Below are positions 1 through 13,598 of a DNA stretch of 64,000 bases, one piece after another. Numbering within the stretch: the first letter of the stretch is position 1; each line of letters begins with the position of its first letter. The notes beneath the pieces were generated by a model, which had not been told where the DNA came from, did not search any database, and was given only the letters and a program-made list of their open reading frames with translations. Position numbers and translations under genes: made by a program. Source of the stretch: Minisyncoccota bacterium (GTDB taxonomy: Bacteria > Patescibacteriota > Minisyncoccia > Phycocordibacterales > CAJQIN01); NCBI GenBank assembly GCA_905478465.1, contig CAJQIN010000002.1, positions 24,312 through 88,311 of the forward strand, read 5' to 3'.

Positions 1-1791
1 ACGAGCTTCTTTCATAATACGAGAAACTTCAGCATCAATCTTGGCAGAAACTTCTGAAGAATACTCTTTTCCACTAACACCTTGTCCAAAGAGAGCCTTA
101 CCCCCAGAACCTTCAAAAGCAATAGGACCCAAAGATTCTGACATTCCATATTTTGTTACCATATCACGAGCAAGAGCAGTTGATACCTGAAGGTCATTTG
201 AAGGACCAGTTGAAAGATCTCCGAAGATCATCTTCTCAACCACATATCCACCAAGTGACATAGCTATATCATCAAGAAATTCTTTTTTGGTTCGCAATCT
301 CTTATCTTCAAAAGGAAGATTCAGAGTATATCCACCTGCACGTCCACGAGAAATAATGGATACTTTGTGAACCGGATCAGAGAACTCAAGCACAGAGCCA
401 ACAAGAGCATGTCCCATTTCATGATATGCAGTTATTTCTTTTTCTTTCTTTGAGAGTAGATGACTTTTTCTTTCTGGACCAAGCATTACCTTTTCAATTG
501 AACGGAGTAGGTCATATTGAGAAACTTCCTTCCGTTCTTCACGTGCAGCAAGAATAGCTCCTTCATTCATAAGTGAATACAAATCTGCCCCAGAGAACCC
601 AGGAGTTCTTTCTGCAATAACAACAAGATCAACATCTTCTGTAAGGGGTTTCTTTCGTGAATGAATTTTCAAAATAGCTTCTCGATCTTTTCTATCTGGC
701 GGGTCAATCATAACTCGACGATCAAATCTTCCTGGTCGAAGAAGGGCTGGATCAAGTACATCAGGACGGTTTGTAGCAGCCATTATAATGAGTTTCTCAT
801 TTGGTTCAAATCCATCCATTTCAACAAGTATCTGATTGAGTGTTTGTTCTCGCTCATCATTCCCACCACCAACACCAGTTCCTCGAACACGTCCAACAGC
901 ATCAATTTCATCAATAAAAATAATTGCGGGTCCCATAGACTTTGCAAGCTTGAATAGATCTCGTACACGACTTGCTCCAACTCCTACAAACATTTCCACA
1001 AACTCTGATCCAGAAATAGAAAAGAATGCAACACCTGCTTCTCCAGCAACAGCACGCGCCAAAAGTGTTTTTCCTGTTCCAGGAGAACCCATAAGAAGAA
1101 TACCTTTTGGAATATCTGCGCCAATTTCAATAAATTTCTTTGGGTTCTTTAGAAAATCCACAACCTCAGCAAGTTCCTGTTTGGCTTCCTTTGCTCCTGC
1201 CACATCATCAAACGTTACCCGATTTTTAGTATCAGCAGGATCAATCATTTTTGCCTTTGACTGTCCGAAACTAAAGGCTTGCATGCCTGAACCTTTTACT
1301 TGTCTTGTGAGGTACCAGAAAATAAAGATAATAAAAATGATAGGGATAAGTACAGGAGCTAAATTAAGTATCCAAAAAAGAATACCTCCCTCTTTTTTGA
1401 TATTTATTTCAACACCAGATAGTTGTTCTGAAGTCACACCATAGTTCACCAGAGTATCAGATAAAGATGCTTCATCTTCTTTCTTAGAATTTTTTTCAAT
1501 CACCTCCTGCCCTTCTTCACCCCTATACGTAACAGACAGACTACTACCTTCAACTGTAATTTTTTCAACACTTCCTATCTGAATATCCTGCGCAAGTTGA
1601 GACAGAGCTATTTGCTCTATTTCCTTTTTATTATCAGAGATAAAAGAATACAAAGAGATAAGTGCAAATAGAATGAGAACAGTAGAAAGAAGATTCATCC
1701 AAAATGGCACTTTTTTATTCTTTTTACCCTTACCCTTCTTATTTACAACAAGTTTAAAATATTTCTTTTTCTTCTTCGGAGTTTTTTTCAT
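1..1791 (-). CDS. ftsH: ATP-dependent zinc metalloprotease FtsH (C-terminal part cut by window start)
   Basis: Minus-strand translation has N-terminal TM segments, AAA Walker A 'GSPGTGKT', SRH region and an HExxH zinc site; start MKKTPKKKK at 1791. The + strand ORFs 661..957 and 836..1444 are antisense artefacts. Confidence 0.9.
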
Positions 1792-1874
1792 ATGAGGCAA
1801 TTATACATAAATATCAGAGTATTAAAAGAAAAATACATTTTTGTTTCTATGAATTCGTTGCTATCATTGACCTA

Positions 1875-2315
1875 ATGTTAATTGCAAACAAAAAAGCACG
1901 CTTAAACTACGAGGTCCTTGAGACATTTGAAGCAGGTATCAAACTGCTTGGTTTTGAGGTAAAAGCCCTCAAACAGAAAAGTGGTTCACTGGAAGGCTCT
2001 CATGTGACCATACGTGGAGCCGAGGCATTTGTAATCAACATGCACATCCCCCCATATCAACCAACCAACACCCCTAAAGGATATGACCCATATCGCAACA
2101 GAAAACTACTACTCACAAAAAAAGAACTTCTTGTTTTAACAGGAAAAGAGTCCCAAAAAGGATTGACAATGGTACCACTTTCAGTGTATAATAAAGGAAA
2201 GAATATCAAACTTGAGTTTGCAATTGTTCGCGGAAAGAAAAAATTCGACAAACGAGAAGACCTGAAGAAACAAACTGCCAAGCGTGATATCGAACGATCT
2301 TTGAAATACGAATAG
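1875..2315 (+). CDS. smpB: SsrA-binding protein SmpB
   Basis: 146 aa, typical SmpB length and sequence character; lies immediately upstream of a tmRNA gene. Confidence 0.88.
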   Translation: MLIANKKARLNYEVLETFEAGIKLLGFEVKALKQKSGSLEGSHVTIRGAEAFVINMHIPPYQPTNTPKGYDPYRNRKLLLTKKELLVLTGKESQKGLTMVPLSVYNKGKNIKLEFAIVRGKKKFDKREDLKKQTAKRDIERSLKYE

Positions 2316-2366
2316 CAAAGCCGACCATTCATAAAGAGTAGAGGAATTCATATTCCCCTTTTCTTT

Positions 2367-2763
2367 GGGGATGATCGGCCTAGACGAGTAAGCTATCCAT
2401 CATATGTGCAAAGTAGAGCTCTGGGAACTCTTTAAAAGCTCAGAACACTCTAAGTGCAAACTTAGTACAAAAAACAAAGTCAGTAGCTTCACCTTTCTTT
2501 AAGGCGAACGACTTTGCATTCGCTTACGCAATAGCCTAAGCGACGCGCACGCATTGAGGAGTTCGAGTAAATGTATTGCGTGTTATTACACGAACTAGAC
2601 CTGCTAGTGTTTTGATTTCAGGTCGACATTAATTAAAACTCGACGTTTGAGAATTTTGTGTATTTTATATCTCAAATGTTTAAAACCTTAAAACACACTA
2701 CACTTTGTAGAATCATATTTTGAACTTATTCACACGGCGGTTCGATTCCGCCCATCTCCACAT
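2367..2763 (+). ncRNA. ssrA: tmRNA (transfer-messenger RNA)
   Basis: 5' GGGGAUGAUCGG...GACGAG; 3' T-arm GGCGGTTCGATTCCGCC then acceptor strand CATCTCC pairing with 5' GGGGATG including a G3.U pair (Ala identity), then A-CA. Internal tag frame GCG AAC GAC TTT GCA TTC GCT TAC GCA ATA GCC TAA gives ANDFAFAYAIA* (2504..2539). Confidence 0.8.
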
Positions 2764-4324
2764 CTAGGGATTTTGTAGTGACAAAATCTTCAAATAACCT
2801 TACAGCACTTGGTATTTCAGCGGTTCCATAACCCTCATCAAGTGAGTATGGTAATTTCTCATCAAAAATAAAGAAGAATAGCTTTTGCCTTTCTTCAACT
2901 TCTAATTTAGCCCATATTTTATAAGGGCTTTTCAGCATACCAGTCGCTTTATCTAAAGCGGTTCCATAAGGAATATCAAAGTCCACGACCTCAAGTATAT
3001 TTGGGTCTTCCTGCTCCCTCTGACTCACTAAGTCCTCAATCTCTTTTTCGTATACTTGAACAAGTGATTCTGACTTGGTTTCAATAACTCTCCGAGAAAG
3101 CAATTTTATTTTTTCATCTATCTCTTGACTCGCCTGTGAGTTTTTTAGCTCCCTTTCTTTCAACAATGAAACTTCTATATCCCAAGATTTATCAAATATC
3201 TTTTTGATAAGAGGGCCCGCTCGAGGATTTAGCTTGTGTCTTTTTAGTAGTTGATTAAAACGTAATTCCGCGTCCTCAACCGAAAGTGATTTACTGTATC
3301 GCTCACAATCTTTGTTTTGACACTTGTAATACGCATAGCGCCTTGTCCTACCTTTAGACCAAGCGCCAGTGAGATGTCCGCGACATTCTGGGCAAACTAG
3401 AAGGCCTCTCATAGGAAAATCTGCCCTTACATCCATTCTGACTTTCCGACCTGTTGCTTCGTTAGTTAATCGTTTTTGATTGAGTTCAAAAATCTCTTTC
3501 GAGATTAAACCTTCGTGTTTTCCTTCTCTTATACTGACCTCCCATGCGGGGTACTCAATGAAACCGGCATAGAATGGGTCTCGTAATATCACCGTAAACT
3601 TATCAATGTATCTTTCTGGAGCTTGGGCTTTCCAGAAACCCTTATCAACCAAGAAACGACAAGCGTCTACTTTTCTCAGAAAGACACTCTTGGCGTATCC
3701 TTCCAATGCTTCTTGCAAGTATGTAGCTTCCGGCTCCTTACGCATTGATATGGTCCCGTGTATAGGACTACGAGTCATTTTGTACCCTTTTTTAGAGCCA
3801 AAAGCCCAATAACCTAGCAATAGTCGAGCACGCTGTTTCTGTATCACCTGACGCTTATTTTGCTTTCTTTCTAGTTCGGCTTGGCCGGCCATGATTAACT
3901 CAGCAAAACGCCCTTCATCGCTATCATCAAAGTTGTAGTTGAGACAACGTAAAGCGACGTCTCTCATTTCAAAAGCTGTCCTTAGCTTGAGATGAAACTC
4001 AACATCTCTCGCAAACCGTTTTAAGTCATCAAAAACCACAACAAACTTTTTGTGAGGACGAGTGTCGATGTATTCAAGCATGGCCCTCATTGCGGGACGA
4101 TTCATAAAATCACCACCTCCAGTAACGCTGTCTCTAAATGTTTCAGCATGTGGCACCTTAATGTTTTGTAAGTCAGTCAAGCACCTCCCTTCTTGCGACT
4201 TCAGACCTGTCCCTTCTGTTTCCTGACGCTTACTTGATACTCGGGCATAGACAATGCCCTCGCGTCCATCATAAGAAACTTCTTTGCGTTCGCCGTATAA
4301 ATTAATTTTTCTTGCTTTGCTCAT
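2726..4324 (-). CDS. large serine recombinase (integrase) 1
   Basis: N-terminal resolvase-type catalytic domain 'IVYARVSSKRQ', recombinase domain, zinc-ribbon 'CPECRGH...YYKC'. The last ~11 codons (..VEMGGIEPPCE) are encoded by the tmRNA 3' end. Confidence 0.85.
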   Translation of the reverse strand: MSKARKINLYGERKEVSYDGREGIVYARVSSKRQETEGTGLKSQEGRCLTDLQNIKVPHAETFRDSVTGGGDFMNRPAMRAMLEYIDTRPHKKFVVVFDDLKRFARDVEFHLKLRTAFEMRDVALRCLNYNFDDSDEGRFAELIMAGQAELERKQNKRQVIQKQRARLLLGYWAFGSKKGYKMTRSPIHGTISMRKEPEATYLQEALEGYAKSVFLRKVDACRFLVDKGFWKAQAPERYIDKFTVILRDPFYAGFIEYPAWEVSIREGKHEGLISKEIFELNQKRLTNEATGRKVRMDVRADFPMRGLLVCPECRGHLTGAWSKGRTRRYAYYKCQNKDCERYSKSLSVEDAELRFNQLLKRHKLNPRAGPLIKKIFDKSWDIEVSLLKERELKNSQASQEIDEKIKLLSRRVIETKSESLVQVYEKEIEDLVSQREQEDPNILEVVDFDIPYGTALDKATGMLKSPYKIWAKLEVEERQKLFFFIFDEKLPYSLDEGYGTAEIPSAVRLFEDFVTTKSLDVEMGGIEPPCE

Positions 4325-4505
4325 GTTTTTTTATCTCGTTAACATATCTATCGAGTTCTGCCCTAGCTACATTTCGACAAAAAGCAGTCAGATAGTTTAT
4401 GCGTTGAATAATTTTGTCCTCGGAAGAACCAAAATCATCCACAAGAGACCGGTACTCATCGACCGAGATAACAGCGGTTGTGTCGTTTTCTAACTTCGAG
4501 GACAT
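4302..4505 (-). CDS. small hypothetical protein overlapping integrase-1 start (candidate excision/directionality factor)
   Basis: 67-aa ORF whose 3' end overlaps the int1 start by 23 nt (translational coupling). Confidence 0.35.
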   Translation of the reverse strand: MSSKLENDTTAVISVDEYRSLVDDFGSSEDKIIQRINYLTAFCRNVARAELDRYVNEIKKHEQSKKN

Positions 4506-4645
4506 GCCTCGATTGTAGAAACATCACCCCGTACCAAATCTAGGTCCGATAGAAATAGGAAATGTTTTAAATACCCTTGATTTGCTACATATTTGAAACA
4601 CTATCCACAAGTACGAATACGTACTTGCTCATAGGGTATACCCAG

Positions 4646-5305
4646 TCACTTTTTCAGCTTTACATTGGTCACTCGATAACCTGATTTGTTGTCACTTTCC
4701 AAAAGAGTTTCCCTGGGTAAGCCAAACTCGCGCTCGACCACATCTCTCAAGTTGTTTGCCACCTTTCTTATTCCCACGCCAGTTGTTTCAAACTCTTCTG
4801 CAAGTTTTTGTGTTTTAACAAATCGTTTCTTCTTTGCGAGGTAATTCAGAACCCCGTACGGCCGCTTGTCAGTTTCTAAATTAAACTTCTTGTCTAATCT
4901 GGCTTCAGGATAGAAGCTACCGTCTTTTTCAAGCACATAGCGTTGAACATTCTCCAGCTCTTTAATCTTTTCCTCTAACAAACTTTCTTGCTCTTGTAGT
5001 TGCTGGTAATCCCTAACTCTGACCCAAATACTTTTTCTCATCACATCACCGTCAATGATAGTTGTGACACCTGAAGGAACTATTGCACTTTTGTATTCCA
5101 GATTCCCATCACTTTCTGCAACAAGTAAGTCGAGTGCCTCTTCAGCTAAATATGGGTCAAGGAGCAGGTCATTATATTCTCTGATTCTGTCTATATCACA
5201 AGAAAAAGATTCTCTTGTTGCTCCTTCCTTGAGTCGTTTTGTAATAAACTCAATAAGAAGTTTCTCGCGATATATTGTCTTATCTCCATATCTCTCACTC
5301 TTCAT
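4646..5305 (-). CDS. hypothetical protein, possible C-terminal winged-HTH
   Basis: 219-aa ORF; the C-terminal segment KKKRFVKTQKLAEEFETTGVGIRKVANNL resembles a DNA-binding helix-turn-helix. Confidence 0.45.
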   Translation of the reverse strand: MKSERYGDKTIYREKLLIEFITKRLKEGATRESFSCDIDRIREYNDLLLDPYLAEEALDLLVAESDGNLEYKSAIVPSGVTTIIDGDVMRKSIWVRVRDYQQLQEQESLLEEKIKELENVQRYVLEKDGSFYPEARLDKKFNLETDKRPYGVLNYLAKKKRFVKTQKLAEEFETTGVGIRKVANNLRDVVEREFGLPRETLLESDNKSGYRVTNVKLKK

Positions 5306-5331
5306 TGCTTTATTTTAGCAACAAACAACAC

Positions 5332-5688
5332 TTACTGACATAACGAATACTCTTTCATCCCTTTAGTGAACCCTTGTCCGACCATATCTTCTTCACTGTA
5401 TCCATAGGCCCAAACAGTTACGGAATCCTGATTCGACTTATTAGCATTAATAATTTGTTCTAGCGTGTAATCGACCTTTTCTTGCTCAGCCACATCCGGG
5501 ACCAGAACATGAATGCCTACACGCCTACAGTTGAGATACGATAGGTCGCTTTGTTCCACAATCCGATATTCTAGTAGCGGTTTCTCGTTTACCCCTCTTG
5601 AAATTATCACCATAACAACCAGAATGGCGACTAGAGCGATAAACCCTCCTGCCGAGTACTTAGAAATTCTAATTATTTTATCTATCAT
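5332..5688 (-). CDS. small membrane-anchored protein
   Basis: 118 aa with an N-terminal hydrophobic anchor (FIALVAILVVMVIIS); preceded by repeat element A. Confidence 0.45.
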   Translation of the reverse strand: MIDKIIRISKYSAGGFIALVAILVVMVIISRGVNEKPLLEYRIVEQSDLSYLNCRRVGIHVLVPDVAEQEKVDYTLEQIINANKSNQDSVTVWAYGYSEEDMVGQGFTKGMKEYSLCQ

Positions 5689-5723
5689 GGTTTTCCTTTA
5701 AAACTCATAAACCCTGACAGCAG

Positions 5724-5879
5724 ATACAAAAAGCCCGCCACCAGGAGGGCCGAAGCCCCTATAGGAGTTTCCCCCTATAACGCGTTCAACGCCCTGAATG
5801 ACGGGTTTTTTATGTTGAACGCGATTTCTGACCATACCTTATGAAAACCATAAGGGTTAGGCCATCTCCTTATTTAATT
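5724..5879 (+). repeat. structured intergenic repeat, copy A (second copy at 11413..11562)
   Basis: About 70% identity to 11413..11562 over ~155 bp. Conserved core CCCTRAATGACGGGTTTTTTATGTT is flanked by a 10-12 bp inverted repeat whose sequence differs between copies but stays complementary (A: CGCGTTCAAC/GTTGAACGCG 5781..5823; B: AACGCTACAAAC/GTTTGTAGCGTT 11468..11515). Confidence 0.6.
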
Positions 5880-5998
5880 GTCATTGAATTATACCACCTT
5901 ATACGCTCCTGACCCTACCCCCCCTAAAATTAACATTTCAAAATATGATACGGCTCAAAATAAAGCTTTTTTTGTAAACAAAATTACAATTTCTAATT

Positions 5999-6508
5999 TT
6001 AGAGATTTAAATCTAAATCTTCAAATAAGTCGATGGCAAATCTTTCTCCTGAAACATGAAGGACATTGTAATCGTTACAAACATTTGGTATTTTGGCTTT
6101 TTTATTATTCTTACCAGAACTAACAGAACGCTCAGCAGTTACCACTACTGTCTTATGATTTAGAGAATGAGCTATTACATAAGGGTCCGCTATGGTCTTA
6201 ACTCTATTCTCATCTTCAAGAGTAGGATGAGCACGAATAATTGATATGGCTTGGTTATAATCATCCGCGCTTAATTCCTTAACTACCTGGGTCTGTCTTT
6301 CTTTAATCCACCCCGCCATGTCATCATCCTTATTCATAACCTCTTCATACACCTCACGAACAACATACGCTCTGCCAAGATTAAACAACTCTTCTATCTC
6401 CAGCCATAGGGGTGAAAATCTCTTAATAGGATAATTATGACTTAAAACAATCAAAGCAGAAGCATCGAAGTTATATATTTTATTATTCTCTGCCAGGTTC
6501 ATTGTCAT
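5999..6508 (-). CDS. PIN-like nuclease domain protein (DUF4411-like)
   Basis: 169 aa, N-terminal 'IYNFDASALI' acidic PIN-type motif. It lies immediately downstream of an ImmA/IrrE peptidase gene, a pairing that recurs in published gene-neighbourhood surveys. Confidence 0.55.
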   Translation of the reverse strand: MTMNLAENNKIYNFDASALIVLSHNYPIKRFSPLWLEIEELFNLGRAYVVREVYEEVMNKDDDMAGWIKERQTQVVKELSADDYNQAISIIRAHPTLEDENRVKTIADPYVIAHSLNHKTVVVTAERSVSSGKNNKKAKIPNVCNDYNVLHVSGERFAIDLFEDLDLNL

Positions 6509-6513
6509 AACTT

Positions 6514-7734
6514 TTAATTTGCCTGGCTAAACTGGTTTTCAATTTTTTGTATGTGCTTTTGTTTTATATCAAAAAATCTGACCATATCGAAATAAGATAT
6601 TTTCTTACTTTCTTGAGCAGATAAAACCCTTTGAGTGAGCTTTCTTCCACTTGCGTTTAAAGCCATAACATAAGGTTGAGGACCTCCACTTTGACCCTTT
6701 TCTTTTGCCTTTTGCTTTAATCTTTTCTTGTACTCTTGAAAAGATAGCTTTAACTCTCTGTCTTTATTTTCAAAAAAATTCTTAGTAACATTGCCACTGT
6801 CATAAAACCTTCTAAGAATAACTCTTGCACTTACTCTATATTTTGTTGCAAGACGTTCTAAGAGTTCTCCATCTTCTTTGTCAGACAAAAACCTTTTTGC
6901 CATATTTTCATTAAGAAGGTTATTCAAAGGAACAAGAAAACTACCAGAAAAATGATTGGCGAAAGTTTCTATAATTAGATGCTGACGTCTTAGGGAAGTA
7001 TTATCTCTTTTAATTTTAGCTAAATCATTCTCACTCAATAATAAGTGAGCTAGTTCATGAAATAAACTAAAAGTTCTGCCAGCAGGACTGTCTTTGGTAT
7101 TTAAAACAATAACTGGTACTTGGTCCTCATCCCCCCTTAAACAAAATGCTCTTATCCCGCCCTCTTCCTCATCAAGAGGCATAGACATTTGAAATACAAG
7201 CAAGCCCAAATCCTCTAAGGCATTAATCCAATTTTTTAACGCATCTCCTTTATCTTCCCAGGAAAGTTGCTCTTCTATACTGATGTTTATGAGATTTCGT
7301 AGCTTTTTGGCTTGCTCATTTACATCTTCTTCAAAATGCAAAATAAACTTTTTTATCTCTCTATTTATTGGTTCTTCCAAAATTTCACTAATCTCTTCAA
7401 AGTATTCTCTATTACGCCTGGCTTTCCTGACAGCTAGTCTGACCTCGTTACTAAGCTCTTCTTGCTTAACACTATCAAGAGTTCTGAAGTCAACAGGAAA
7501 AGCTTTCGTTACGGGAACGTCTGGCAAGAAAAAAACTCCCATACTGCGCTTATAGCGATTCGCAAGGTCTTTGAGTTTAGACACAGATATTTCTCCGCCA
7601 TTTTCCCATTCAACTAATTGCTCTTCAGAAACTTTTTGTTTTTTTGCTACTTCAGATAAGTCATATCCGATTGTTTCTCTGGCCCATTTAAGTATGCCTG
7701 GTGTAGTTTTAATTGTAGGTGTCCGGCTTGCCAT
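6514..7734 (-). CDS. XRE-family HTH + ImmA/IrrE (COG2856-like) zinc metallopeptidase
   Basis: N-terminal HTH (LKWARETIGYDLSEVAKKQKVSEEQLVEWENGGEISVSKLKDLANRY) and HExxH motif 'FHELAHLL'. The likely start MASRTP is at 7734; the ORF track extends to 7848. Confidence 0.65.
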   Translation of the reverse strand: MASRTPTIKTTPGILKWARETIGYDLSEVAKKQKVSEEQLVEWENGGEISVSKLKDLANRYKRSMGVFFLPDVPVTKAFPVDFRTLDSVKQEELSNEVRLAVRKARRNREYFEEISEILEEPINREIKKFILHFEEDVNEQAKKLRNLINISIEEQLSWEDKGDALKNWINALEDLGLLVFQMSMPLDEEEGGIRAFCLRGDEDQVPVIVLNTKDSPAGRTFSLFHELAHLLLSENDLAKIKRDNTSLRRQHLIIETFANHFSGSFLVPLNNLLNENMAKRFLSDKEDGELLERLATKYRVSARVILRRFYDSGNVTKNFFENKDRELKLSFQEYKKRLKQKAKEKGQSGGPQPYVMALNASGRKLTQRVLSAQESKKISYFDMVRFFDIKQKHIQKIENQFSQAN

Positions 7735-7822
7735 AGTAGTTACATTGTATAACAAATACACACCAATCTTAAGTACGATATCCTGCCGAGTAAAAAATGA
7801 TAGTATTCTAGTAGAAACTATT

Positions 7823-7937
7823 GCCCAAGTGGTGGAATTGGTATACACATCCGTTTACCAAAGCGTTTAATTATTTGAACGTTTTGTAAACGGATAGCGC
7901 AAGCTGTGCGGGTTCGAGTCCCGCTTTGGGCACAAAC
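7823..7937 (+). other. tRNA-like RNA element (115 nt) with an extended 10-bp anticodon-like arm
   Basis: 5' GCCCAAG pairs with 3' TTTGGGC (7-bp acceptor with a G.U), followed by A-CA. U8, a GG-containing D-loop and a canonical T-arm GCGGG-TTCGAGT-CCCGC are present. The central helix ATCCGTTTAC/GTAAACGGAT has a 27-nt loop. A hairpin terminator follows at 7950..7977. Confidence 0.35.
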
Positions 7938-8419: not shown

Positions 8420-10075
8420 TCACGTTGTAGAAAGGGCTTTTTGCAGACGTGGGCAGTTCTCGTAAAAATGCCAGAAGTCAACGAGGTAGCTTTTCAGGCG
8501 GTTGAACGAATTGTTCGACAAGTCCACATCACAGGAACCAGACACTGATATTGCCTCAAATACGTTGTATATTGGCGATAGTTCAGCGGTTCCAAAGCCT
8601 GTTTTTAAATCATAAGCAGGACCCCTAGAGAAGACTAGCTTATAGGCTAGTCTTTTCTTTGCCAAATCATCAGAAAGCCAGAGTTTTTCAGGGTTTTTTA
8701 TTAGTTTCATCGTAGACGCCAAAGCGGTTCCAAAGGTTTTAGGATAAGTGTTATCTGACTTAACTTGTTTCTTTAGTTGTTTTATTTCTTTTTCTATATC
8801 TCCTATCCTCTGTTCATACGTCCCTATTACGGACTCATTCTTTGCATTAACTATACGGTCCAAAAAAGTTTTCTTCTCTTCCTCTAATTTTTCTATTTCT
8901 TTTTTACTCCCTTCTCCTTTTTTGAATAGCTTAACCATTCTCTTCTCCCACACATCCTTAATTATTTTTTCTGCAAGATTAACAATCTGTTCTTTTGGAT
9001 GATTCTCAGTGAGTAAATCCAAAAAATCACTGTGTATGTTTTCTATGGGGATACTCTTTCCATAATATGGCGACTCCTTTTTATTGAACCTATAATATGG
9101 GTGCTTTCCGTTCCTACCTGTAGTCCAGCTAGCAGTTAAAGGATGTCTAGTCACAGAATCCACGATGAAACCCCTAAGCGGAAAATCTTTTGTCATTCCT
9201 TGTTTTTGAGTAGCTGGGTACAAAGGTTTGTTTTCTAACTTTCTTTCAATTTTATCTAAAATATCTTCTGAAATTATTCCCTTGTGCTTCCCTTCTCTTC
9301 TTGCAACTTCCCAGTCTGGATACTCAATAAACCCAGCGTACAAAGAAGCCCTCTTTAATAACCGAGAAGCGGTATCGGCATATACTTTTTTGTCTTTGTA
9401 GAAACCATTCTCATCCAAAAACTTCCTAAGCTCTTCTTTGTTTGAGAATCTTCCAGAAGCAAAACCCTCAAGACCTTCCCTAATCACTGAAGCAATAGGT
9501 TCATTAGGATGAAGGACCCAAGTACCGTCGCTAAGGTTTTTTCTAACAAAACCAGGGACCTTTGAACTAAAACCCCAATAACCTCTTTCAAGTCTTGCTT
9601 TCGTCTTTTGCACAACCTGTCTTTTATTCTGGTTTCTCTCAAGCTCAGCTCCAGCAGCTAAAATTGTCTCTACGTAACGACCCTCTGGAGTATCGTCGAA
9701 GTTAAAGTTTAAACACTCTGGTGTTATATCTCTTGATTTAAAAGCACTCCTAAGTTTGAGATGAAATTCAACATCTCTTGCAAATCTCTTCAAGTCATCA
9801 AATACAACAATATATTTATTATGCGGTTTACTATCAACATAATTAATTAAAGCTGACATAGCGGGCCTTTTCATAAAATCACCTCCTCCAGTAAAACTGT
9901 CTAGAAAAACTTCTTCTACTTCATAACCTTTACTTCTGGCGTATTCCTTACAGCGTTGCGCTTGACTATCCAATCCATTCCCTTCTTTAGTCTGCCTATC
10001 GGAAGACACACGAGCATATATAATTGCTTTAAGTTTAATTTCCATATTCTTTATTATAACCTTCATAATGCTCAT
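8420..10075 (-). CDS. large serine recombinase (integrase) 2
   Basis: Paralogue of int1 ('IIYARVSSDRQ', 'FDDLKRFARDVEFHLKLR' shared). The probable start MEIKL at 10045 overlaps the stop of a 49-aa upstream ORF (ATGGAAATTAA). Confidence 0.85.
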   Translation of the reverse strand: MSIMKVIIKNMEIKLKAIIYARVSSDRQTKEGNGLDSQAQRCKEYARSKGYEVEEVFLDSFTGGGDFMKRPAMSALINYVDSKPHNKYIVVFDDLKRFARDVEFHLKLRSAFKSRDITPECLNFNFDDTPEGRYVETILAAGAELERNQNKRQVVQKTKARLERGYWGFSSKVPGFVRKNLSDGTWVLHPNEPIASVIREGLEGFASGRFSNKEELRKFLDENGFYKDKKVYADTASRLLKRASLYAGFIEYPDWEVARREGKHKGIISEDILDKIERKLENKPLYPATQKQGMTKDFPLRGFIVDSVTRHPLTASWTTGRNGKHPYYRFNKKESPYYGKSIPIENIHSDFLDLLTENHPKEQIVNLAEKIIKDVWEKRMVKLFKKGEGSKKEIEKLEEEKKTFLDRIVNAKNESVIGTYEQRIGDIEKEIKQLKKQVKSDNTYPKTFGTALASTMKLIKNPEKLWLSDDLAKKRLAYKLVFSRGPAYDLKTGFGTAELSPIYNVFEAISVSGSCDVDLSNNSFNRLKSYLVDFWHFYENCPRLQKALSTT

Positions 10076-10184
10076 CTAAAACAACCTCAGCTAATGAATA
10101 TAGAGCATCTCTAAACATCTCCACCTCTTCATCAGAAATAGCCACATCAGCAAGATATTCTTTACATTCCTTAATAGGTATCAT
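10035..10184 (-). CDS. 49-aa acidic small protein overlapping integrase-2 start
   Basis: MIPIKECKEYLADVAISDEEVEMFRDALYSLAEVVLDEHYEGYNKEYGN; its stop overlaps the int2 ATG. Not in the ORF track because it is shorter than 60 aa. Confidence 0.3.
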   Translation of the reverse strand: MIPIKECKEYLADVAISDEEVEMFRDALYSLAEVVLDEHYEGYNKEYGN

Positions 10185-10220
10185 GTTTAGTAAAAACTCT
10201 TCATGTTAGTGATTTTTACC

Positions 10221-10442
10221 TCATTTTTTACGCCCCTCAAGAGACTTCGTAAGAGACATAAGATGCTTAATTAGTTTTTTTCTGTCTCCTTTATCATAGT
10301 CGTCACGATTAACTAATTTAGAGAAATTTTCTGTAATAGAATTGTAAGAAAAATTTCTACCATTAACAGCTGCTGCAAATGCCATATAGCTACTAATTGG
10401 TTCCTTGTAATACTTGTTAAACCTAGCCTTGATACTTCTCAT
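10221..10442 (-). CDS. hypothetical small basic protein
   Basis: 73-aa ORF upstream of the 49-aa ORF/int2 operon. Confidence 0.35.
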   Translation of the reverse strand: MRSIKARFNKYYKEPISSYMAFAAAVNGRNFSYNSITENFSKLVNRDDYDKGDRKKLIKHLMSLTKSLEGRKK

Positions 10443-10662
10443 GTTTGTTTTTAATTAAAAAATAAAAAAAGACGACAAATAGCAATAAAGCTATGTGTCG
10501 TCTTTTGTTAGATTTAACACAAGATGTCGTCTGACATCTAAATAAATATTCAGTTGTTACTTATTAATATACCACCTATACGTCTGTAGAGCAAGTTTTT
10601 TCCAGAAAACAAACATCTTCTAACTTTTCATATCCTACATTTTCCAACATTTGACAGAAGTC

Positions 10663-11385
10663 TTATAGTTTAAATTTTTTATCATACTTTTTTGATATCC
10701 AAGACTCCCAATAGTCAATAAACTTAAATGGGTCTTTAGCATACTCCAAACTAGGGTCTGCCTGTATTTGCTCATCTATTTTTTCAAATCTAGGGTACAT
10801 AAAACTAGAGTTATATAGTTTGTATTCCGACAACAACTCGTCTGTTACATCTTTTAAGTTATTAGAAAAGTTAAATGAGCCAGAACTTTTCCACTGGTCA
10901 TATCTACGCCCCCACTCTGTGTTTATTCTATCTTCTAAATACACAGGCCTTTCGTCTGCGTAACCTGTCTTACCACTACCCTCTGACGAATCTAAGGAAG
11001 CCTTTTTTAATTCCCTAGAGCAAGAAGTTACTTCATCATTAAGATTGTTAATTTTAATTTTGTAAGTAGTCGCCAAAGTGCCCAGCTCTAATTTCAATTT
11101 TTTATTTTCCTCTTCTAAAAAACTCATCCGTTCAGCCACGACGGGGTCATTTATTATTTTTTCAATAAATACTTCTTTTACCACGACCTCTTTTGTGTCC
11201 TTATTCACAGAATCACCAACTTCCTTTTGAGCTAGGTTAGGTTGAGAATTATTTTCTAAATTTTCTGGTATCACAAGTGTGTCATTTTTTGAGTTGAACC
11301 AACTTGAGGGATTCCACCAACTAGCATACGTGACCAATGGAATGATTATGACCACCACTATAAGTATTTTGGATATATTTTTCAT
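10663..11385 (-). CDS. secreted coiled-coil protein
   Basis: N-terminal signal-like segment MKNISKILIVVVIIIPLVTYASWW; coiled-coil region (EENKKLKLELGTL). Preceded by repeat copy B. Confidence 0.5.
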   Translation of the reverse strand: MKNISKILIVVVIIIPLVTYASWWNPSSWFNSKNDTLVIPENLENNSQPNLAQKEVGDSVNKDTKEVVVKEVFIEKIINDPVVAERMSFLEEENKKLKLELGTLATTYKIKINNLNDEVTSCSRELKKASLDSSEGSGKTGYADERPVYLEDRINTEWGRRYDQWKSSGSFNFSNNLKDVTDELLSEYKLYNSSFMYPRFEKIDEQIQADPSLEYAKDPFKFIDYWESWISKKYDKKFKL

Positions 11386-11412
11386 ATTTGTTTGTAGCGT
11401 TTAAATAATAAG

Positions 11413-11562
11413 ATACACAAAACCCGCCACTAGAAGCCCCTAAAGGCCTACACGAGTTTCCAAGTGCAACGCTACAAACGTCCCTAATGACGGGTTTTTT
11501 ATGTTTGTAGCGTTTTTTCAGACCATGCCTTATTTTATAGGTTTAGGTCACCATATTTAATT
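11413..11562 (+). repeat. structured intergenic repeat, copy B
   Basis: See copy A. The right stem arm GTTTGTAGCGTT also occurs a third time at 11392..11403. Confidence 0.6.
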
Positions 11563-11611
11563 ATTTAATTACAAGCTAAATAATACATCACTTACAGGTA
11601 TTTTACACACC

Positions 11612-12307
11612 TTATTTTTCAATCTCTAACAAGCAATCGCTGGTCTGCTTACCCGTATCTGGGTTCACACATTTGTATGCAATAACTAACTCATCTATAG
11701 AGGAGTTTCTGTCAAGTGAGTTAACGTACGTAGTGAAAATAGTTTTGTTTGAAACATTTAAAAGTGCCACCCAGTCTGCAACCATAATTGGGTTACTTCT
11801 ATTCTTTGTCTCCCTGTAGACAATTTCACCTAGTGGAAAAAGTACCTCAGTATAATCTCCTGTATTATGATTAACGACAGCACCTTCTGACACCAAATGT
11901 CCACCAAACACACCAGGGCTCAAATAGAAATCCTCCCAATAATCAAGCGGCTTACCACTCTTTTGAACTCTAATATATAAGTACCCACAAGCAACTTTAG
12001 AGTTAGAGCCATACCGATTTACGACAACAGTTCTATCTTCGATAAAACCGTTATAAGCATTCACAAAAGTTCTATCTCCCAAAAGCTCAATAGAACTTTT
12101 ATCTTTTAAAGACTTGAAACTATCAAAATCTCTCGGACAACTAACGGTAGGATTTTCTATCTGCTTAATAACCTGATTAGCAACGTCCTTAAACTGGTCT
12201 TTACTAGGATTTACTTTCTCCGCAAGCCAAACAGAAAACACCACAAACAAAATAGACACCGCTATTAACAAAAATGCTTTAACAATACTTTTAAAATTAT
12301 TTTTCAT
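11612..12307 (-). CDS. membrane-anchored extracytoplasmic protein
   Basis: ORF 11612..12352; the likely start MKNNFKS at 12307 is followed by a TM helix. Confidence 0.5.
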   Translation of the reverse strand: MKNNFKSIVKAFLLIAVSILFVVFSVWLAEKVNPSKDQFKDVANQVIKQIENPTVSCPRDFDSFKSLKDKSSIELLGDRTFVNAYNGFIEDRTVVVNRYGSNSKVACGYLYIRVQKSGKPLDYWEDFYLSPGVFGGHLVSEGAVVNHNTGDYTEVLFPLGEIVYRETKNRSNPIMVADWVALLNVSNKTIFTTYVNSLDRNSSIDELVIAYKCVNPDTGKQTSDCLLEIEK

Positions 12308-12311
12308 TAGA

Positions 12312-12614
12312 TTAATTATTATTCCGTTCCTCAACAAGAATTTTAAACTCATATTTAATAAAGAATATGTATAAAACAGTTATTAGTATGCTAACAAAAA
12401 CTGGCAAGAGTAATGCATGAATTTTGTCTGGTATTTCTTCAAGCCAAAACGTTTTTACTGCCACCTTAATATCAGGCGCAAAGAAATTTGTTACCCCGAC
12501 AAACGTTACCATTAAAGACGCCAACAATGCTCCTGCCACAAAATTAAAAATCGTGGCAATAGTAACTAATATACAAGTAACTACTAAGATATTCCCTAAT
12601 TTAATAAAAAACAT
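12312..12614 (-). CDS. small integral membrane protein
   Basis: 100 aa, three hydrophobic segments. Confidence 0.4.
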   Translation of the reverse strand: MFFIKLGNILVVTCILVTIATIFNFVAGALLASLMVTFVGVTNFFAPDIKVAVKTFWLEEIPDKIHALLLPVFVSILITVLYIFFIKYEFKILVEERNNN

Positions 12615-12784
12615 ATATTCTATAAATCAAATCTAACCTAATATACACTTAAAAACAAGGTCCTTAATTAATTACCACCAGGTGCTTACATGTGGTCAGA
12701 AATATGATTTTCAAGATATTCACCAAAATAAAATTAGTTATAACTCTTTTTTATTTCAAAATATTTTAAAACAGCATTTAAACC

Positions 12785-13249
12785 CTAAAGATTATTCTGA
12801 TAGTACTCATCTAGATATTTTTGTAACTTAAAATACCAAAGAGTAAAGCCTACTACGGTCAGTAAAAATCCTACCCACAACAGACTTTGTGCAAGAAACC
12901 TACCTTCCGTAACTTTAGAAAGTTTGGTTTTTGTAATTATAAAGTTTTCTTGAACTTCCTTAATTCTGTTTTCATATTTAATAACCCCACCCTTAAATAA
13001 AACTATATACTCAAGTTTTACTTGCTCACTTGAAACAAGAACTTCATCAAGAACCCCGTTAAGCTGTTCCCTGGTACTATTTACCTCCTGTGTTAATGTT
13101 TCAATTTCTAACTCATTAAAATATTCCTGTTGATAAATATCAAGCAAACTATTCGATGTTTGATAAAAGAGGATAGAACCTGTAACAAAAACAAGTAATC
13201 CCGCTATGGCGATAAATTTATAAAGATTGTCAGTAGGAATTTTAAGCAT
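12785..13249 (-). CDS. membrane protein
   Basis: 154 aa with N- and C-terminal TM segments. Confidence 0.45.
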   Translation of the reverse strand: MLKIPTDNLYKFIAIAGLLVFVTGSILFYQTSNSLLDIYQQEYFNELEIETLTQEVNSTREQLNGVLDEVLVSSEQVKLEYIVLFKGGVIKYENRIKEVQENFIITKTKLSKVTEGRFLAQSLLWVGFLLTVVGFTLWYFKLQKYLDEYYQNNL

Positions 13250-13598
13250 AAATTTAGTAAGTATCTAATAACTTATTTATATTTTACCTTAAATAACGTT
13301 CTATTACTCCTGCGTGTGTCTACTACCCAAATCATCTACCAATTTAAACCATTTCTAAACCTATGGACATTTCTCCAATTTCTAATACCCAATCTTTTAT
13401 TAGGTTCCAATTTTTCGACAAGATGTCCACCAAAAATACTAAACTTCCAAAAAATAACAGACAAAATACCTGTTGTTTTTACATTTTATAAAAACACCAC
13501 TTACCTCTCTTTGTCTAAACCCAGACTTGACAACTAACCCATAAGAGACGAATATACGAAACAAACCCTAGAACCTTCACATAGAAAAGGAGATACCA

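Follow-up and report, generated by a model that had tools for sequence, protein, structure and literature searches.

What is the element of about 155 bp that occurs twice in a 64,000-nucleotide stretch of the genome of a Minisyncoccota bacterium (assembly GCA_905478465.1, contig CAJQIN010000002.1, positions 24,312 to 88,311; the whole of this stretch is hereafter called the window), and what does it do there? A preliminary description made from the sequence alone had placed the two copies at 5724..5879 (copy A) and 11413..11562 (copy B), where they are indeed present, and had noticed in them an inverted repeat whose sequence changes while its pairing is preserved. Both repeats are minus-strand genes for LOOT RNA, an already catalogued structured RNA (Rfam RF03000). 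As for its role, our leading interpretation, to which we give a probability of roughly 0.55, is that LOOT acts in cis as a pseudoknotted leader or attenuator of the cargo genes of mobile elements.

Two LOOT RNA genes on the minus strand

The identification comes from Rfam 15, against which the entire window was scanned at gathering thresholds, with four matches in all. Two of them are full-length RF03000 matches (model positions 1-121 of 121; gathering score 46.4), located on the minus strand at 5863..5746 for copy A (80.2 bits, E = 1.6e-13) and at 11549..11435 for copy B (61.7 bits, E = 3.7e-9); the remaining two are a transfer-messenger RNA (tmRNA) gene at 2367..2763 and a tRNA-like gene at 7823..7932. 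Both copies exhibit the RF03000 signature, namely CCUAA / GCAUGG in hairpin P1 and GAAA in the loop of hairpin P3. A repeat search pairs positions 5722-5827 with 11411-11516 at 73% identity, and the pairwise alignment of the two intergenic regions contains long invariant blocks. When a covariance model of our own (described below) was run with filters off, the copies scored 129.7 and 101.5 bits, and no third copy was detected in the window (next-best match at 10.3 bits, E = 0.15).

LOOT originates from the Weinberg/Breaker ZWD alignments and entered Rfam in version 14, described as a metagenome-based RNA (PMC7779021). CaCoFold assigns it about 43 bp in six helices (PMC7657543), and two covarying pairs were added to it in Rfam 15 (PMC11701678). 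These three papers merely list or depict the family, it goes unmentioned in the main text of the discovery paper (PMC5737381), and no function is assigned to it in the literature that we found. LOOT membership is thus, by itself, the ordinary rediscovery of a catalogued family. What is added here for this orphan RNA, now experimentally tractable, is its strand, a putative promoter region, a predicted 3' boundary, a covarying helix, absent from the Rfam model, that forms a pseudoknot or resembles a terminator, a probable contact between tetraloop and receptor, a consistent 5' leader position before diverse membrane-protein genes, and an association with mobile elements of the Candidate Phyla Radiation (CPR) that carry serine recombinases. 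These structural and contextual additions appear to go past the Rfam model, and some may already stand in the supplement of the discovery paper.

In the Rfam alignment of copy A, P1 occupies 5830..5863 (all positions in this paragraph are read on the minus strand), with an internal loop formed by CCUAAC (5856..5861) and UAUGG (5832..5836). P2, supported by the Rfam alignment and by covariation, consists of a 5' arm X, CGCGUUCAAC (5814..5823), and a 3' arm X', GUUGAACGCG (5781..5790). Its apical loop (5793..5813) is made of an A-run, AUAAAAAA (5806..5813), and a segment termed T5', CCCGUCAUUCAGG (5793..5805). P3 (5760..5779) is closed by a GAAA tetraloop, assigned from the Rfam alignment and loop statistics, and P4 (5746..5759), with a UUCG loop, is the end point of the Rfam model. 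Beyond it lie a tail termed T3', CCUGGUGGCGGG (5734..5745), which pairs with T5', and a U-run, CUUUUUGU (5726..5733). Copy B is organized in the same manner: P1 at 11521..11549, with the loop CCUAAA/CAUGG (Rfam alignment, loop statistics); P2 at 11468..11514, with X AACGCUACAAAC (11503..11514), X' GUUUGUAGCGUU (11468..11479), and a loop holding an A-run (11495..11502) and T5' CCCGUCAUUAGG (11483..11494); P3 with its GAAA loop at 11450..11467 and P4 at 11435..11449 (Rfam alignment); T3' UCUAGUGGCGGG at 11423..11434; and a U-run UUUUGUGU at 11415..11422.

Every block that the preliminary description had listed maps to a defined minus-strand part of this RNA. Blocks GGTTTAGG and CAGACCATRCCTTAT pair with each other to form P1, CCCTRAATGACGGGTTTTTTATGTT covers the A-run and the apical loop of P2, GAGTTTCC is the GAAA loop of P3, ACCCGCCAC (minus strand CCUGGUGGCGGG) is the 3' tail that begins directly after P4, and ATTTAATT falls inside a conserved 5' leader motif discussed below. 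The covarying inverted repeat corresponds to helix P2 of RF03000 (CGCGUUCAAC/GUUGAACGCG in A, AACGCUACAAAC/GUUUGUAGCGUU in B), and the GGGC-UUCG-GCCC hairpin seen on the minus strand of copy A is P4. The window copies share with the Rfam family its four hairpins, its CCUAA...GCAUGG and GAAA elements and its covarying stems. They differ from it, as do their CPR relatives, in that an A-rich loop stands where the Rfam consensus extends P2 apically (cmscan flags the extension pairs of the window copies as non-canonical), and in that this loop pairs with a 3' tail located beyond the 121-position model.

Homologues were collected with a search pattern anchored only in P1 and the linker that follows it, which yielded one match among viral contigs, 30 loci among GTDB species genomes and 83 metagenome stretches (80 of these 83 make up the metagenome material). 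With the Rfam model, LOOT is confirmed at 21 of the 30 genome loci and also on the viral contig, which is the single viral LOOT locus and comes from IMG/VR. Named LOOT hosts are nearly all metagenome-assembled genomes of CPR/Patescibacteria (Saccharibacteria, Paceibacterota, Parcubacteria, Levybacteria, Niyogibacteria, Nomurabacteria). In a first MAFFT alignment (A2), P2 was out of register in eight of the 20 rows, and the 12 in-register sequences were used to build our covariance model, which covers P1 to P4 plus 32 nucleotides (nt) of unpaired 3' flank. The preliminary description had named a lack of further homologues as grounds for its own refutation and had proposed to look for them with a covariance model: 97 were found, 84 of them distinct (alignment A4), and stem covariation is present among them.

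Some contigs carry two or three LOOT copies (L075, L101, L090, L093). We also observed "mini-LOOT" variants, which lack P3 and P4 and pass directly from P1 and its linker to a simple hairpin (ACGGUCUUUAAGAUCGU) and a U-run; they are located at L075:9437-9547(-), L075:8598-8750(-), L076:1-149(-) and L101:5951-6096(-), and form arrays beside a full-length copy.

The transcribed strand is the minus strand, because on this reading G-U pairs outnumber A-C pairs by 417 to 38 alignment cells across the family, and because the two window copies contain five and seven G-U pairs and no A-C pair. Among the 84 distinct homologues, P2 is a long stem of locus-specific sequence in which 98% of cells are paired and nine of the ten pairs change on both sides. 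The proportions of paired cells are 90-99% for P1, 97.5% for P3 and 97% for P4, and 29 of the 34 pairs of P1-P4 change on both sides, in an alignment that was itself fitted to these helices. The covariation of P2 bears out the view that the repeat is a selected RNA secondary structure and not a recent duplicate.

The loops of these hairpins suggest a tertiary fold. P4 loops are GNRA or UUCG, and 76 of the 84 rows have GAAA as the loop of P3, a feature not imposed by the search pattern. The canonical 11-nt receptor of the GAAA tetraloop is CCUAAG/UAUGG (PMC11381326), and the internal loop of P1, CCUAA(A/C) opposite (C/U)AUGG, is identical to it at nine of 11 positions. The invariance of CCUAA/AUGG in our set is partly imposed by the search pattern; the Rfam consensus conserves the same residues. 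LOOT resembles the tetraloop-receptor modules of group I and II introns, RNase P and designed RNAs in having a similar P1 loop together with the GAAA of P3, but in place of the G-U wobble of the 11-nt receptor it has a covarying A/C or C/U combination (CCUAAA/CAUGG in 55 rows, CCUAAC/UAUGG in 20). By analogy with these modules, we infer that the GAAA loop of P3 docks on the receptor-like loop of P1, and a tertiary contact between P3 and P1 is likely.

A covarying helix between the P2 loop and the 3' tail

The invariant core of the repeat (minus strand AAAAAACCCGUCAUUCAGG) sits in the apical loop of P2. It had previously been read as a small CCC/GGG hairpin plus a U-run on the plus strand. This reading has to be revised: the plus-strand pattern is really the complement of the A-run and the loop, and the core is the 5' strand of a long-range helix formed with ACCCGCCAC. 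The P2-loop core and the 3' tail are complementary, with G-U pairs on the minus strand only, and form a covarying helix of 12 bp, hereafter T, between the loop (CCCGUCAUUCAGG in copy A) and the tail after P4 (CCUGGUGGCGGG). T is absent from the Rfam model. A plus-strand terminator made of the CCC/GGG hairpin and a T-run was considered and rejected, as no credible plus-strand gene lies upstream and the G-U pairs fit only the minus strand.

Support for T is free of fitting bias, because its columns were aligned as unpaired positions in the 84 rows of A4, and RNAalifold recovered the helix unprompted from a plain MAFFT alignment. Paired cells amount to 91.0%, against 73.8% in shuffled alignments (none of 500 reached 91.0%) and 39-60% when the 3' partner is slid out of register. 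Ten of the 12 pairs change on both sides, and 169 cells do so, against 52.6 in the shuffles. This support is comparable to that of the established helices (90-98% paired). Compensatory variants found in homologues include CCCGUCAU/GUGGCGGG, CCCAUCAU/GUGGUGGG, GGUCUUC/GGGAGACC, GCUACUCG/CGAGUAGC, CCCGUUAU/GUAGCGGG and CCCGUCGUC/GGCGGCGGG.

T crosses P2, and the topology is therefore that of an H-type pseudoknot (S1-5', S2-5', S1-3', S2-3') in which both helices covary. Its 5' linker measures 6-8 nt and is 63% A, and its second linker measures 2-4 nt. A U-rich tract follows T directly (63% U in the 12 columns past T3'), and the A-run located 5' of T5' can pair with the U-run (75% paired, with little covariation). 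The T duplex is worth about -24 kcal/mol, and a nested state containing T is predicted to be about 9 kcal/mol more stable than the state with P2 only, in both copies. Since P2 is nevertheless paired in 98% of cells, it would either form first, co-transcriptionally, or coexist with the core of T as a pseudoknot. The 5' leader (CUGAAU) was considered as an anti-T partner for the P2 loop (AUUCAG) and discarded, as this 5' motif is constant in subfamilies with a wholly different T5'.

In intrinsic terminators, a duplex that abuts a U-tract favours release of the transcript. The mechanism that we propose makes use of this geometry. LOOT would be the 5' leader of cargo genes encoding mostly small membrane-anchored proteins; P1 to P4 would fold co-transcriptionally, with the GAAA loop of P3 docked on P1, and the emerging tail would then anneal to the preformed P2 loop. 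The resulting T duplex, adjacent to the U-tract, could act as an attenuator similar to an intrinsic terminator, yielding an RNA of about 150 nt upon termination and an mRNA upon read-through. Like Rho-independent terminators, LOOT has a G+C-rich helix and, directly after it, a U-tract with which an A-tract located 5' of the helix is able to pair. In contrast to them, the two strands of T are 47-60 nt apart, with three helical elements between them, and the 5' strand lies in the loop of another hairpin. A local terminator after P4 was also sought and not retained: a scan was empty, and by eye the tail has no consistent local hairpin partner across homologues.

The closest structural parallels are pseudoknotted leaders such as the preQ1, SAM-II, fluoride and ZTP riboswitch platforms. 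As in LOOT, these are located in 5' untranslated regions, a loop pairs with a 3' segment close to expression signals, an A-rich loop runs along the pseudoknot helix, and a U-tract or a start codon is found just downstream. Unlike them, LOOT has no known ligand, the genes that it would regulate are unrelated, and its pseudoknot is built on a long helix (12 bp, with a possible extension to about 20) and has P3 and P4 placed inside the connecting loop. If the leader or attenuator model is true, LOOT would be one of the earliest described regulatory RNAs of CPR mobile elements, and an unusual case of loop-tail pairing driving termination.

Leader, small RNA or passive structure

The genes around LOOT offer a way to choose between these possibilities. 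Read on the minus strand, the order is 5999..6508, copy A, 5332..5688 in one case and 11612..12352, copy B, 10663..11385 in the other, with all flanking genes on the minus strand. The open reading frame (ORF) downstream of copy A (5332..5688) encodes a protein of 118 amino acids with an N-terminal membrane anchor and is preceded by a Shine-Dalgarno (SD)-like motif, AAGGAAAA (5691..5698). That of copy B (10663..11385) encodes 240 amino acids, has an N-terminal signal or anchor, and has no SD-like motif before it. The preliminary description was thus right to place both copies upstream of secreted or membrane-anchored proteins, as both products carry N-terminal hydrophobic segments. The start codon lies 45 nt after T3' in copy A and 37 nt in copy B.

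The same arrangement prevails in the family. Among 60 full-length matches with enough flanking sequence, 41 are followed by a same-strand ORF of at least 80 amino acids starting between -45 and +100 nt of the model end, while an opposite-strand ORF occupies this interval in 10. A second pass revealed an ATG and a hydrophobic ORF in most matches lacking a qualifying ORF. An N-terminal hydrophobic segment is found in 33 of the 41 downstream proteins, and an SD-like motif in only six of 46 leaders. The distance from T3' to the start codon has a median of 45 nt; it is 20-56 nt in most relatives and 20-26 nt in several. With start codons so close to T3', a separate promoter would not fit in between, and transcription of the downstream ORFs would have to start at the putative promoter of LOOT itself.

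As a separate observation on these proteins, the product of 10663..11385 (-) and that of L010:2161-3378 (+), which follows a LOOT copy of Levybacteria, share an N-terminal signal-like segment and then ASWWNP(S/L)SW, and the LOOT RNAs before the two genes differ in their P2 arms.

The putative promoter is suggested by the sequences upstream of P1. Copy A is preceded by an extended -10-like box, TGGTATAAT (5888..5896, minus strand), and then by a 5' leader motif, ACAAUUAAAU (5872..5881, minus strand), whose counterpart in copy B is GUAAUUAAAU (11563..11572, minus strand). The family consensus of this motif is CAAYTNAAW (often ACAACTGAAT); it is present in 52 of 81 distinct upstream regions of 70 nt, 0-10 nt before P1, and a -10-like hexamer accompanies it in 49 of these 52, mostly 7-8 nt further upstream. 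Several motif-bearing homologues also have TTGATT or TTGACT at 17 nt. We infer from these sequences that the box upstream of LOOT is a promoter and that the 5' leader motif likely marks the transcription start region. The sequence of the motif covaries with no part of the LOOT RNA, and its role may be that of an initial-transcribed element or of a binding site for a protein. Some loci have a small GC hairpin between the motif and P1.

A further feature connects LOOT with translation. In copy B, an exact second copy of the P2 5' arm AACGCUACAAAC, which we term X*, is located at 11390..11401 (minus strand), 4 nt before the AUG, and can pair with X'. Three exact occurrences of AACGCUACAAAC are found in the window, whereas 0.24 are expected. 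Among homologues, 14 of 76 carry an exact repeat of 8-12 nt of their own linker and P2 5' arm (less than one expected when arms are swapped between loci), invariably 1-7 nt before an ATG. X' can thus pair with either X or X* in 14 of the 76 loci, copy B included. X* varies in sequence from locus to locus, yet agrees with the P2 of its own locus every time, and the best explanation is therefore that it serves as an RNA partner of the P2 3' arm, able to mask the translation start. In copy B and about 18% of relatives, X* could then rival X for pairing with the P2 3' arm and cover the AUG, adding translational control. Copy A has the SD-like AAGGAAAA in place of X*. We also asked whether P2 arms could serve as guides to other sites, and dropped this idea, as neither X nor X' of copies A and B has matches beyond chance elsewhere in the 64-kb window. 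The Rfam description of LOOT includes neither the promoter, the U-run, the linkage to downstream ORFs, X*, nor the mobile-element context described below.

These data bear first on the possibility that LOOT is a stand-alone, trans-acting small RNA (sRNA), with its own promoter and termination at T and the U-run, which would act as a molecule of about 150 nt on other targets or on a protein, expression of the neighbouring ORF being incidental. Such an RNA would agree with the Rfam type of RF03000 ("Gene; sRNA"), with the promoter-like box of the unit, with a strong helix followed by a U-run that resembles an sRNA terminator, with the mini variants (L075, L076, L101) reduced to P1, a simple hairpin and a U-run, and with the convergent ORFs that follow about 10 of the 60 loci. 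It is at odds with start codons located 20-56 nt past T3', where another promoter would not fit, with the excess of same-strand over opposite-strand ORFs (41 versus 10), with X* repeats that lie beside an AUG and pair with the P2 arm of their own locus, and with P2 arms of copies A and B that have no other match in the 64-kb window. We thus regard a trans-acting role as a serious but rather doubtful possibility.

Alternatively, LOOT could be a leader that is constitutive and does not switch: its fold would shield the cargo mRNA from 5' exonucleases or insulate it from upstream transcription, and the U-tract would be a ribosome landing site in SD-poor leaders. The mutual unrelatedness of the downstream genes and the scarcity of SD-like motifs (six of 46 leaders) are compatible with this, as is a fold that looks very stable (tetraloop and receptor-like loop, A-rich linker of 6-8 nt, T at -24 kcal/mol). 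On the other hand, regulated alternatives are suggested by the competition of X* for the P2 3' arm and by the complementarity of the A-run and the U-run (75% paired), and a helix directly before a U-run has the geometry of a terminator. A purely structural role consequently appears unlikely to us.

Several points weigh against the leader or attenuator reading that we prefer. With regard to structure, the homologue set samples one branch of LOOT, within which the invariance of P1 is by construction; the covariation fits P2 and T both as a coexisting pseudoknot and as alternates; the 47-60 nt that separate the arms of T, occupied by P2-3', P3 and P4, do not make a canonical terminator hairpin; and a consensus terminator scan found no match at either copy. 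With regard to genes, the convergent ORF at about 10 of 60 loci is not explained by a pure leader role. Moreover, the 40 downstream proteins compared are mutually unrelated (9% mean column identity), and their few Pfam matches are spread over ten unrelated families, each matched by at most three proteins (DUF2726 three, SNase three, bPH_2 two, and others); genes controlled by a ligand-sensing riboswitch are not typically so diverse. Neither copy A nor about 82% of relatives have X*, Rfam classifies the family as an sRNA gene, and the start sites, 3' ends and read-through of LOOT are all predicted from sequence.

LOOT in recombinase-bearing islands

The two window copies lie in tandem paralogous islands (2726..7850 and 8420..13300) that have the same gene order and are about 5.7 kb apart. 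On the minus strand, each island displays LOOT, the membrane-protein ORF, a small ORF and a large serine recombinase. The recombinase genes, at 2726..4324 in island 1 and at 8420..10075 in island 2, the latter beside the tRNA-like gene 7823..7932, both encode a Resolvase domain and are located downstream of copy A and copy B, respectively, on the same (minus) strand. They are paralogous (73% nucleotide identity over 179 nt), and several other short repeats recur at a spacing of about 5.7 kb.

This association extends beyond the window. Of the 34 LOOT loci that span at least 6 kb, 16 contain a homologue of the serine recombinases by tblastn, whereas none of 10 control loci does. The recombinase is upstream and divergent in 14 of 19 cases, down to about 220 nt away, and downstream on the same strand, as in the window, in four. 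This co-occurrence indicates that LOOT travels with recombinase-bearing mobile elements of CPR bacteria. On contig L090, two oppositely oriented LOOT copies, at 597-737 (+) and 6593-6740 (-), flank a serine recombinase gene (~1439-3055, +).

The units formed by LOOT and its gene are reminiscent of the "morons" or lysogenic-conversion units of phages, which likewise are self-contained assemblies of a promoter, a gene and terminator-like signals, encode small membrane proteins, reside in integrated mobile elements near an integrase, and vary in gene content. They differ from morons in sharing an elaborate conserved RNA fold before otherwise unrelated genes.

The proximity of recombinases raises the question of whether LOOT functions as DNA, that is, as a recombination site similar to attC or att, whose folded strand or repeats would be seen by the recombinase and whose ORFs would be exchangeable cassettes. 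Large serine recombinases at 16 of 34 loci against 0 of 10 controls, some of them divergent and only about 220 nt off, would be expected under this hypothesis, as would the diversity of downstream genes and the locus-specific direct repeats formed by X and X*. Serine recombinases, however, exchange strands at a 2-bp core and make no use of folded hairpins. In addition, the G-U pairing of LOOT is strand-specific (417 versus 38), the GAAA tetraloop and the receptor-like loop are RNA tertiary modules, and a promoter-like box stands directly upstream. LOOT also differs from integron attC sites and their cassettes in lying 5' of its ORF behind such a box, and its neighbours have the Resolvase domains of serine recombinases, not those of tyrosine integron integrases. 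Finally, we found no att-type direct repeats of at least 16 nt of the tmRNA or tRNA 3' ends bounding the islands. A role as a DNA site is therefore extremely improbable in our view. Among the options left by the preliminary description, a leader or an sRNA is consistent with the data, with the gene context favouring the leader. A recombination or att-associated structure is not supported, given the G-U pairs, the tetraloop and its receptor-like loop, the upstream promoter-like box and the serine type of the recombinases.

A bolder proposal would retain LOOT as an RNA and couple it functionally to its serine recombinase, LOOT controlling or specifying integration, excision or cargo exchange, with the P2 arms and X* as specificity determinants. 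In a weaker form, LOOT would be a pseudoknot-type intrinsic terminator or attenuator in which loop-to-tail annealing replaces the hairpin, providing portable control of cargo genes across CPR mobile elements. We consider this pair of ideas very unlikely.

Just upstream of copy A, island 1 encodes a DUF4411 protein and an HTH_3/Peptidase_M78 (IrrE/ImmA-like) protein (5999..6508 and 6514..7848, minus strand). The pairing of DUF4411 with HTH_3/Peptidase_M78 is typical of regulatory or toxin-antitoxin-like modules of mobile elements.

Two RNA genes are adjacent to the islands. The 3' end of the recombinase gene 2726..4324 (-) overlaps the 3' end of the tmRNA gene 2367..2763 (+), which is the layout expected of an island integrated into tmRNA; the tag peptide of this tmRNA is ANLVQKTKSVASPFFKANDFAFAYAIA. 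Between the islands, the tRNA-like gene 7823..7932 (+) scores 43.2 bits against the Rfam tRNA model, and ARAGORN made no call at this locus. Its anticodon-loop region is enlarged by a 32-nt insertion and its variable region is long; it could be a tRNA that is disrupted or contains an intron, or else a target of integration. Its 5' end is overlapped by the ORF 6514..7848 (-).

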